Below, one piece after another: positions 48,546-49,646 of a DNA stretch of 56,956 nucleotides. The translations under genes and the position numbers were made by a program. Below the pieces are notes generated by a model that was given only the letters and a program-made list of their open reading frames with translations, was not told the DNA's origin and did no database searches. This DNA is from a virus (lineage: Duplodnaviria > Caudoviricetes): positions 1-56,956 of the IMG/VR virus record IMGVR_UViG_3300036791_000660. One strand, 5' to 3'. Positions within the stretch are counted from its first letter, which is position 1. Every line of letters starts with the position of its first letter.

Positions 48546-49490
48546 TCAGTCCTTCTTCAGGTTGATCGCGGTGACGAACCGCTTGTTGGGCGCGTGGCGG
48601 TTCATCCACGAAGCCGGTGAGCCCATGAACCGGGTTTCGAGATGGCCGGAATCCCGGCGAGTCTGGATGGCGCGCAGCGTGCCGACGGGAACGCTTGCCG
48701 GATCGCGGGCGGCGGCCTTGGCCGCTGCGTAAATCTGGTCGCGCACGGTGCGCAGCGCGGCCTCATCGACCGCCATGATGGCGAGATCGACGCCCTTCCA
48801 TTGCGGCGAGTGCTTCTTGAAGCGCTCCATCTGCCGCAGGTCGTAGCTGGTCGCCGTGTCGCCGATCAGCGGACGCGGAGCTTGCAGGCCGAACATCCCA
48901 TCGACCGAATCGCAGGCATGCTGGTTGGGCGCGAGGTCGTGGTCCGAGCGCTCCTTCGGCATGCGCTTCTCCAGCGCCGCCATGCGCTTGCGCAGCGCAT
49001 TGAGATCGACCGCGTCGGTGGCAACCTCCTTGTCCTTGGGCGGCGGCGGTGGCGGCGCCTCGTCGTCGTCATCGTCGTCATCGTCCTTCTTCGCCTCGCC
49101 CTTCTTCTTGTCGGCCGCGACCGGCACCGGCTCGCCCGTGCCCGGAGGAGGCGGCGGCTTCTTGGCCGGCGGTGGCGGCGGCGCCTGATCGTCGTCGTCG
49201 TCGTCCTTCATCACCGGCGCGACGGGCGGCGACACTTCCTTGGGCGGCGGCGCCTCGGCGTCCTTCTTGGCGACGGCCGCAGCGGCTTCCGCCGGGCTGT
49301 GATCGTCGTCATCGTCGTCGTCCTTCTTGCCCTTGAGGCTGGCGAACTTGCTCTCGAAGGCGTCCATCCGACCGCCCATCGAGTCCAACTTTTTGTCGAG
49401 CGCATCCAAGCCCTTCAAAAGTTTGTCGAGATGCGTCCCACCGCCAGCATCGGCGGCGACCTTCGGCTTGTCCTTGTCCTTTTCAGCCAT
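48546..49490 (-). CDS. Capsid scaffold-like protein
   Basis: GAGGAG RBS; D/P/K-rich disordered body; between DUF2213 and decoration genes. Confidence 0.7.
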   Translation of the reverse strand: MAEKDKDKPKVAADAGGGTHLDKLLKGLDALDKKLDSMGGRMDAFESKFASLKGKKDDDDDDDHSPAEAAAAVAKKDAEAPPPKEVSPPVAPVMKDDDDDDQAPPPPPAKKPPPPPGTGEPVPVAADKKKGEAKKDDDDDDDDEAPPPPPPKDKEVATDAVDLNALRKRMAALEKRMPKERSDHDLAPNQHACDSVDGMFGLQAPRPLIGDTATSYDLRQMERFKKHSPQWKGVDLAIMAVDEAALRTVRDQIYAAAKAAARDPASVPVGTLRAIQTRRDSGHLETRFMGSPASWMNRHAPNKRFVTAINLKKD

Positions 49491-49554
49491 GACTGTTCTC
49501 CTCGGCTGGTTGGGTGATTGACAAATGCTGTCTGTCTGGATAGCCGATGCATTC

Positions 49555-49646
49555 GACATGGCGCGGCGAGGCCCGTCGTTGCAACGCGAGGCAAGCCGAG
49601 GCAAGGCAAGGCGTGGCTATCTGGGACGGCGCTTACGCGCCGTCCC
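49555..49646 (+). ncRNA. Stand-alone GGY-NN repeat cassette D (putative guide RNA) with 3' hairpin
   Basis: 13 in-phase pentamers (49555-49619); GGGACGGCGC-ttac-GCGCCGTCCC hairpin; TTGACA at 49518. Confidence 0.8.

Follow-up and report, generated by a model that had tools for sequence, protein, structure and literature searches.

A pentamer array between two phage genes and its possible relation to the first codons of the scaffold-like gene

What is the short repetitive insert that separates the NUDIX-domain gene from the scaffold-like gene in the phage record IMGVR_UViG_3300036791_000660, and does it repeat, in an unusual form, the beginning of the scaffold-like protein? The whole virus record was analysed, and "the window" in the following means all of its 56,956 bases (65.7% G+C). 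The insert, called cassette D here, occupies a 158-base gap (49491-49648) flanked by the two genes, both on the - strand. It carries array D, a series of five-base units of the form NNGGC in which the two letters NN are free. The original prediction for this site was that the cassette encodes a variant of the scaffold N-terminus, with NN standing for the first two positions of successive codons. We give a probability of roughly one half to a modified form of this reading, in which cassette D would be a non-coding, nucleic-acid-level copy or address of the adjacent gene end, omitting the third base of each codon and used in cis. The parts of the cassette and the two flanking genes are:

49517..49527, + strand: the ATTGACAAATG box, containing the -35-like TTGACA, identical in cassette B
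49538..49545, + strand: 5' arm GGATAGCC of a predicted stem, whose partner GGCTATCT lies at 49615-49622, closing around array D
49558..49617, + strand: array D, 12 pentamers of NN+GGC, eight with exact GGC and the others with the variants GTC, TGC, CGC and GCC
49618-49622, + strand: a 13th unit, TATCT, seen in the sequence after array D
49623..49646, + strand: GC-rich hairpin GGGACGGCGC-TTAC-GCGCCGTCCC, with the same outer 8-base arms as the cassette B hairpin (44873-44898)
49452..49490, - strand: first 13 codons (MAEKDKDKPKVAA) of the scaffold-like gene, the proposed counterpart of array D
48546..49490, - strand: scaffold-like gene, 314 aa, matching phrog_6216 positions 317-544
49649..50623, - strand: NUDIX-domain gene, matching phrog_6216 positions 6-308

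On the + strand 49558-49622 reads ATGGC GCGGC GAGGC CCGTC GTTGC AACGC GAGGC AAGCC GAGGC AAGGC AAGGC GTGGC TATCT, and 30 bases lie between the ATTGACAAATG box and the first pentamer. The NN string is AT GC GA CC GT AA GA AA GA AA AA GT, which can be read as M-A-[DE]-P-V-[KN]-[DE]-[KN]-[DE]-[KN]-[KN]-V. The scaffold-like gene opens from 49490 on the - strand with ATG GCT GAA AAG GAC AAG GAC AAG CCG AAG, and its GAGGAG ribosome-binding site is at 49498-49503 (-). AA or GA make up 7 of the 12 units of array D versus about 19% among arrays at large. By inspection, the spacer variants (GTC, TGC, CGC and others) bear no relation to the third codon base. The period-5 array is called by Tandem Repeats Finder at 49581-49612. 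The motif GGCNNGGCNNGGCNNGGC, with at most one mismatch, occurs 32 times in the window versus 3.46 +/- 1.86 times in shuffles, an excess of about ninefold, and none of 100 shuffles reaches 32. Both the minimum-free-energy and the centroid fold predicted for 49511-49655 (+) contain the array-closing stem and the hairpin (z -3.5). No open reading frame with a coding signature was found inside the 158-base gap.

Cassette D has three siblings, A, B and C, and these four cassette gaps are the only late-region intergenic gaps with arrays. It was assigned to this group by its parts, namely at least 12 five-base units with GGC (or GTC) at positions 3-5, a TTGACA box upstream and a GC-rich hairpin downstream. 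B and D have the box (11/11 positions) and the outer hairpin arms in common and carry different arrays; in the window the ATTGACAAATG box is found only in these two cassettes, and it has no hit in 80 related loci. Cassette C has the TTGACA and a hairpin that differs from the B/D type. The sibling arrays are:

34578..34647, + strand: array A, 14 pentamers, matching residues 40-53 (TNPGFSGNLPGSLV) of the baseplate-J-like gene at 32846-34534 (-) at 9/14 positions
44772..44856, + strand: array B, 17 pentamers, read on the - strand as PSFVDTGLYLVSF[IM]A[CW]V
40022..40091, - strand: array C, 14 pentamers, spelling M-A-V-[KN]-A-[KN]-[RS]-V-V-[DE]-[IM]-[DE]-T-[KN]

The counterpart of array B is the upstream gene 44900-45406 (-), which ends PSFVDTGLYLSSFRAWV-D-stop, and that of array C is the downstream gene, which starts from a GTG at 39972 (-) and reads VAVNAKSVVDIEVN. 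For the decoding test, each NN was replaced by the residues that its codon box allows and the resulting string was slid over the six frames of the genome, with 100 shuffles of the unit order as the null. Without gaps, 15/17 positions of array B agree with the final codons of the gene beside it, where the null gave at most 9; for array C 12/14 positions agree with the opening codons of its gene and for array A 9/14 with its target, the null giving at most 8 for either. In all three cases 0/100 shuffles attain the observed score. The best six-frame match of each of the three lies 50-160 bases from its own array. Arrays of other viral contigs served as a further, empirical null: their 140 readings against the window peaked at 9/14, a value attained by only three of them. 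Because foreign arrays reach no more than this, the matches of B and C to their neighbours are beyond doubt; array A is a borderline case, though its target lies beside it. When all four arrays are scored with gaps (method below) against all four neighbours, each does best with its own (A 15, B 28, C 25, D 12.5), and no other pairing scores above 8.

Arrays and genes agree better by residue than by letter (15/17 versus 11/17 in array B), and array C agrees at 11/14 by letter. The codon families used by the arrays are present in some relatives, of which L017 matches array B at 14/17 letters. Since these relatives carry such codon families, the array may have descended from another allele of the gene and not from the present one. 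When viral contigs were scanned for an allele of the array C target that has an AGY serine, there were 0 matches. The matched gene segments have a third-position GC of 0.29 beside B and 0.43 beside C, versus a mean of 0.89. Recoding for self-immunity was considered and dropped, as relatives without arrays (L041, L003) have the same codons as the B and C segments. A perfect 8-pair inverted repeat (TCGTTGAC..GTCAACGA) was observed at 39929-39950, inside codons 7-14 of the gene downstream of C and within the stretch mirrored by array C.

All six mirrored arrays, two of them from unrelated contigs (L218 and L196, see below), have the same polarity: the 5' end of the NNGGC strand stands for the gene boundary, and units further along it stand for positions further inside the gene. 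The N-terminal-type arrays C, D and L218 and the internal array A are read in sense along the NNGGC strand, and the C-terminal-type arrays B and L196 are read in antisense, beginning beside the stop. With six cases this polarity rule is only suggestive. Furthermore, when NN is tallied over 4613 units of foreign contigs, its composition correlates with that of codon positions 1-2 in the genes of this phage (r 0.58; 0.66 with both strands mixed), and no correlation was found with codon positions 2-3 or 3-1. This is a weak hint only, with 16 categories and genomes that differ in G+C.

For array D itself, the NN string and the opening codons of the scaffold-like gene are exactly as the original prediction gave them, and the agreement of 7 of the first 10 dinucleotides without gaps was confirmed in the sequence. 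We then scored array D by gapped local alignment (match 2, mismatch -1, gap -2.5) against the first 20 scaffold residues. It scores 12.5, in effect as M A E [P V] K D K D K - K V. This score is reached by 27 of 2000 order shuffles of D, by 2 of 2499 real-gene 20-residue windows and by 0/526 foreign twelve-pentamer pieces, whose maximum is 10.0. Both of the real-gene windows overlap on the scaffold start, which makes it the only site in the proteome at the gapped score of D; the better target in an unrelated gene that the original prediction had asked about was not found among these windows.

The scaffold proteins of relatives open with MAEVEKE, MAEIEKE, MADDDK and similar strings, and because of this the M-A-E-P-V-K-E-K of array D looks like a start of the scaffold-family type. 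Its gapped scores against the relatives' scaffolds are at most 11.5, under the 12.5 with its own gene. To speak of a variant of the scaffold N-terminus is fair for the letters, which resemble the M-A-E-V/I-E-K-E starts of relatives, with the reservation that the match of D is weak. The assignment of NN to codon positions 1 and 2, counted from the gene boundary, holds for the class (B, C and the two unrelated contigs) and is plausible, if individually weak, for D. With support from position, composition and the three siblings, cassette D is a probable, individually weak member of the class, and we think it likely that it truly belongs with B and C.

NNGGC arrays are also found far beyond this phage. 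We scanned viral contigs with an exact pattern, seven GKC at 5-base spacing, which gave at least 137 stretches. Among the matches listed there are at least 290 arrays in at least 122 loci; their spacer is GGC in 3082 of 3477 cases, and NN takes each of its 16 possible combinations. Arrays with free NN (L081-L217, L464-L503, IMG/VR) are common in viral contigs of 48-73% G+C and often stand in tandem. Long arrays are divided by the 4-base AGGC into sub-arrays of about 9-14 units. In bacterial genomes the same exact pattern mostly returned plain pentanucleotide microsatellites, with varied NN in 15 of 123 stretches. No period-5 array was found in 80 related IMG/VR loci (major capsid protein 43-86% identical), nor in 80 related metagenome loci (974 kb). 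The closest relative, L001, has no spacer at the three sites examined, where stop and start overlap or the frame continues.

No description of NNGGC arrays was found in the parts of the literature that a full-text search brought up, and going by those parts they appear to be a widespread and apparently undescribed phage element. Rfam gave 0 matches in the window at the gathering threshold; in E-value mode, 20 array-bearing loci gave only one chance-level microRNA match (E 0.0055). No protein family accompanies the arrays: among 67 flanking open reading frames Pfam found RusA twice, YqaJ, NeuB and a few others. Some IMG/VR arrays adjoin tRNA-like sequence (L110, L084), and some stand directly before a ribosome-binding site and an ATG (L089, L099, L100).

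Two of the other contigs carry a mirrored array. In L142/L218 the array matches residues 3-14 (NSISVSITADVA) of the downstream gene at 10/12 positions (shuffle maximum 8, 141 arrays), and the order is last sub-array, hairpin, ribosome-binding site and a tape-measure-like gene. The array of L196/G002 lies directly behind the stop of the upstream gene and matches its C-terminus, LLTPKLAKRDNTI, at 9/13 positions on the opposite strand (null maximum 7), including a swap from K-R to R-K. Mirroring of a neighbour is real, but few arrays show it and it does not persist over time; this phage is exceptional in that three or four of its four arrays are mirrored.

The contig of L196 also has four tandem units (G002:C1:4100-5900; L434, L442), each composed of TTGACN, 17 bases, an array, TTTCA and a GC hairpin. 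By eye, the -10 is weak, the arrays have 13-21 units and the T-rich tail of each hairpin runs into the next TTGAC. Judged by its sequence this layout is that of separate small RNA genes, and cassettes B to D have their parts in the same order. Cassette D is probably transcribed as well. The last promoter-like site of the tandem units, TTGACA-17-TATACA, is by eye separated from an ATG by 7 bases, which would suit a leaderless gene.

A number of observations weigh against reading array D as a copy or address of the scaffold start, some of which concern array D and others the class as a whole. Ungapped, D matches the scaffold start at 7/13 positions, which equals the null median, and at least 7 is reached somewhere in the six frames in 51 of 100 order shuffles. 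When M-A is held fixed, 182 of 2000 shuffles of D reach the gapped score of 12.5. Moreover, the scaffold start is itself low-complexity sequence. The original prediction had already called D weaker than A to C for its low complexity, and it had proposed a comparison with shuffled K/D-rich sequence; by the three shuffle counts, gapped, gapped with M-A fixed and ungapped, D is marginal.

Chance could account for this match even if those of B and C are real, as an AA/GA-rich array that starts with ATGGC GCGGC stands beside a start rich in lysine and aspartate. Array C too starts with ATGGC GCGAC, and "M-A" may for this reason belong to the cassette itself; the best match of D among the relatives, 9/12, is the null maximum. 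On the other side, the scaffold start is the unique top target among the 2499 windows and none of the foreign pieces reaches the score. The share of AA and GA units in D is far from that of arrays at large, and all three siblings match their own neighbours. A chance match of D is in our view quite unlikely.

For the class, only 2 of 141 arrays (at least 12 units, compared with their own 600-base flanks) score above 8, the highest value seen in shuffles. Another 155 arrays, compared with flanks of 1500 bases, yielded four readings at 9/12, from three arrays, and these matches are weak, lie 700-1000 bases from the arrays and are non-adjacent. The arrays at the same site in L219 and L228, relatives of L218, fail to match their gene, so there is no sign of covariation. 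In a reading of the sequences, the serine or leucine codon family is switched between array and gene at 8 positions and kept at 1, and the array is therefore not a letter-for-letter copy of the present neighbour. The orientation of array and gene varies, being direct for C and inverted for D and A. A scan for consensus promoters and terminators over 34300-50000 found no site at any cassette. Furthermore, we know of no physical way for a strand of period 5 to pair with a strand of period 3; two-base helices are unstable.

Several of these points would suit an explanation by which the arrays act as small RNAs or DNA sites of a generic kind, where GGC at 5-base spacing is what matters, for example as the track of a ring- or filament-forming protein. 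The likeness of NN to neighbouring codons would then be a fossil of the birth of the array at its insertion site, with no function today. GGC is kept and NN is free in the pentamers listed above, the sub-arrays are punctuated by AGGC, most arrays do not mirror their neighbours and the homologous arrays of L219 and L228 have drifted from the gene. The absence of the cassettes from 160 of 160 relatives also fits a recent origin with matches that are still legible. Against this, no known process writes codons into a copy of period 5, the genes beside the arrays share no family (the 67 flanking open reading frames belong to scattered Pfam families) and the switches of serine and leucine families speak against a fresh copy of the present neighbour. 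We regard this explanation as unlikely, and favour an address in use only slightly over a trace of the process that wrote the arrays.

A more literal understanding of "encodes" would be that the cassette is decoded, or used as donor for an alternative scaffold N-terminus, in the manner of the silent cassettes of antigenic variation or the template repeats of diversity-generating retroelements, giving peptides such as MAEPVKEKEKKV. Two facts fit it, the excess of residue over letter agreement in array B and the AT with which C and D open at the position of the start codon. Translation of array D is nevertheless unlikely, because there is no ribosome-binding site before ATGGC or the other arrays, B has a stop, K and N look the same in two letters, the strand read for B is not the one read for C and D, and a scan of the window found no transfer RNA (tRNA) genes. 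Translation of the pentamers as NNG or NNC was tried and rejected: NNG puts a stop (TAG) in B and gives wrong residues in two-fold boxes, and neither fits the K/N and D/E positions consistently. A donor role is not helped by the locus either, with no reverse transcriptase or recombinase nearby, no reverse transcriptase, integrase or invertase among the 72 window proteins and no triplet-period copy able to recombine. We consider the literal reading very improbable. In the original prediction "encodes" is not supported in the sense of translated, D and E being as indistinguishable by two letters as K and N, and it should be read as carrying a copy that omits the third codon base.

Under the copy-or-address reading, which we prefer, cassette D would be a non-coding insert made of the TTGACA box, the (NNGGC)12 array and the GC hairpin. 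It would be one of four inserts peculiar to this phage and would split a NUDIX-scaffold gene that is single in relatives. The arrays would belong to a widespread class of phage pentamer arrays, which elsewhere look like small transcription units with the NNGGC strand as the RNA. Their free letters would carry codon positions 1 and 2 of the terminal stretch of the neighbour, with the third base omitted, and the reading would run from the gene boundary inward, for D into the scaffold start. The information would be held at the level of nucleic acid, as a third-base-blind address or copy of the junction. A use in cis is proposed, either in recombination or spread of the cassette or in regulating the split gene. 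Pairing with 3' single strands after resection at a break in the junction would agree with the polarity rule; this role of the array in pairing or recombination is an inference. To our knowledge, no mechanism is described that makes or reads a period-5 copy of codons.

Parts of this arrangement resemble known systems. In the leader of the Bacillus trp operon, a short RNA repeats a conserved triplet about a dozen times with two to three free bases in between, and the TRAP protein binds to it. Array D also repeats a short conserved triplet about a dozen times with free bases, but the triplet is GGC and not GAG/UAG ((G/U)AG), the setting is a phage and the free bases would carry information related to a gene. 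A search of the 72 window proteins against Pfam found no TRAP-like protein. The same search, together with a comparison of 55 proteins with PHROGs, underlies the statements on protein families that follow.

With diversity-generating retroelements the locus would share a non-coding cassette near a structural gene with a diverged copy of one gene end. The template and variable repeats of retroelements are equal in length, differ at adenines and need a reverse transcriptase, whereas array D has a period of 5 against the period of 3 of the gene and forms no collinear repeat. No reverse transcriptase family was found. Guide RNAs (TnpB omega RNA, IS110 bridge RNA) and the arrays of clustered regularly interspaced short palindromic repeats (CRISPR) combine a constant scaffold with a variable flanking or target-spelling segment. 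The common frame of B and D with different arrays, and the tandem units in other contigs, are comparable to this. The difference is that no nuclease or recombinase lies in or beside the cassette and that the information is interleaved, two letters in five, with the third base skipped. Neither constant repeats of 25-40 bases nor a Cas or TnpB family were found.

Free-standing homing elements of phages are small inserts next to which the flanking codons are altered. The cassettes are likewise small inserts at gene junctions, absent from close relatives, with low third-position GC beside B and C. They differ in having no endonuclease gene, and a recoding is not supported, as L041 and L003 have the same codons without arrays. 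No HNH, GIY-YIG, LAGLIDADG or similar endonuclease family was detected. Lastly, the sponge RNAs of the Csr/Rsm system are small RNAs with many copies of a short G-rich motif, but theirs is GGA in hairpin loops at irregular spacing and here it is GGC in strict 5-base phase.

The genes of the window are arranged in two blocks, with + strand genes from about 1840 to 24164 and - strand genes (lysis, tail, baseplate, sheath, head) from 24419 to 56316. One PHROG profile, phrog_6216, spans both the NUDIX-domain and the scaffold-like gene. Several relatives, L001 among them, have the two parts in a single open frame; cassette D lies at the split. The tail of the NUDIX gene, AVDSKIEHLLARMDAV, resembles residues 30-45 of the scaffold (7/16 identical, E 0.001 for that single comparison). 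This resemblance suggests that the tail may be a diverged duplicate of these residues, i.e. that the junction was duplicated. The proteins of the phage include exonuclease VIII-like and AAA_24 proteins, whose genes lie at 2492-5067.

A further group of NNGGC units is present at the left end of the window:

1..545, + strand: left-end super-array of several NNGGC sub-arrays with the 4-base AGGC between them

Its CACGGCAGGCGCGGC-like boundary recurs about every 120-150 bases. Read in both directions with a sliding 12-unit window, the left-end sub-arrays gave nothing above shuffles in the six frames and no match in the real genes of the phage, and no match was found in the six-frame translations of the relatives (160 related loci, 4.2 million residues). 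Two side observations were made in the early region. An open reading frame in 664-1500 (+) has a signal-peptide-like start (MLRRKLLMAVLGVVAAGGAMTAADALAKG...) and then, over hundreds of bases, triplet repeats of the GGTGGCGGC type, which code for a glycine-rich protein. By eye, the gaps 10255-10300 and 11940-11975 (+) are promoter-like (TTGAC..TATAAT), unlike the weak -10 regions of the cassettes.

The cassette sequence is real, since the separately built Logan contigs of the public soil run X1 reproduce B, C and D. They cover 39900-42466, 43942-47055 and 47490-49800 with 0 differences. X1 may be the window's own sample, so this agreement excludes a single-assembler artefact and is not independent biology. 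The soil run X2, from another study, contains about one fifth of the sampled words, in short contigs with 0-3 differences and one piece with 10. A very close relative thus seems to be present elsewhere, and the listed X2 pieces of 39900-49800 cover no cassette. No RNA dataset is among the public sequencing runs listed as containing sampled window words.

A broader interpretation is that (NNGGC)n small RNAs form an addressing code, which spells a coding target with the third base skipped and is blind to synonymous change. We hold this to be improbable at present. A cassette would by this means find or mark a gene junction, or the gene of a rival phage, even where synonymous codons differ. The form acting in cis would then be represented by the four cassettes of this phage, and the form acting in trans by the long tandem arrays. 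If the relation between arrays and genes is functional, it would represent a new way to store and read sequence information, in which a nucleic acid follows the reading frame and ignores the third base. If the match is only a trace of how the arrays arose, it points to a process that copies codons into a repeat of period 5.

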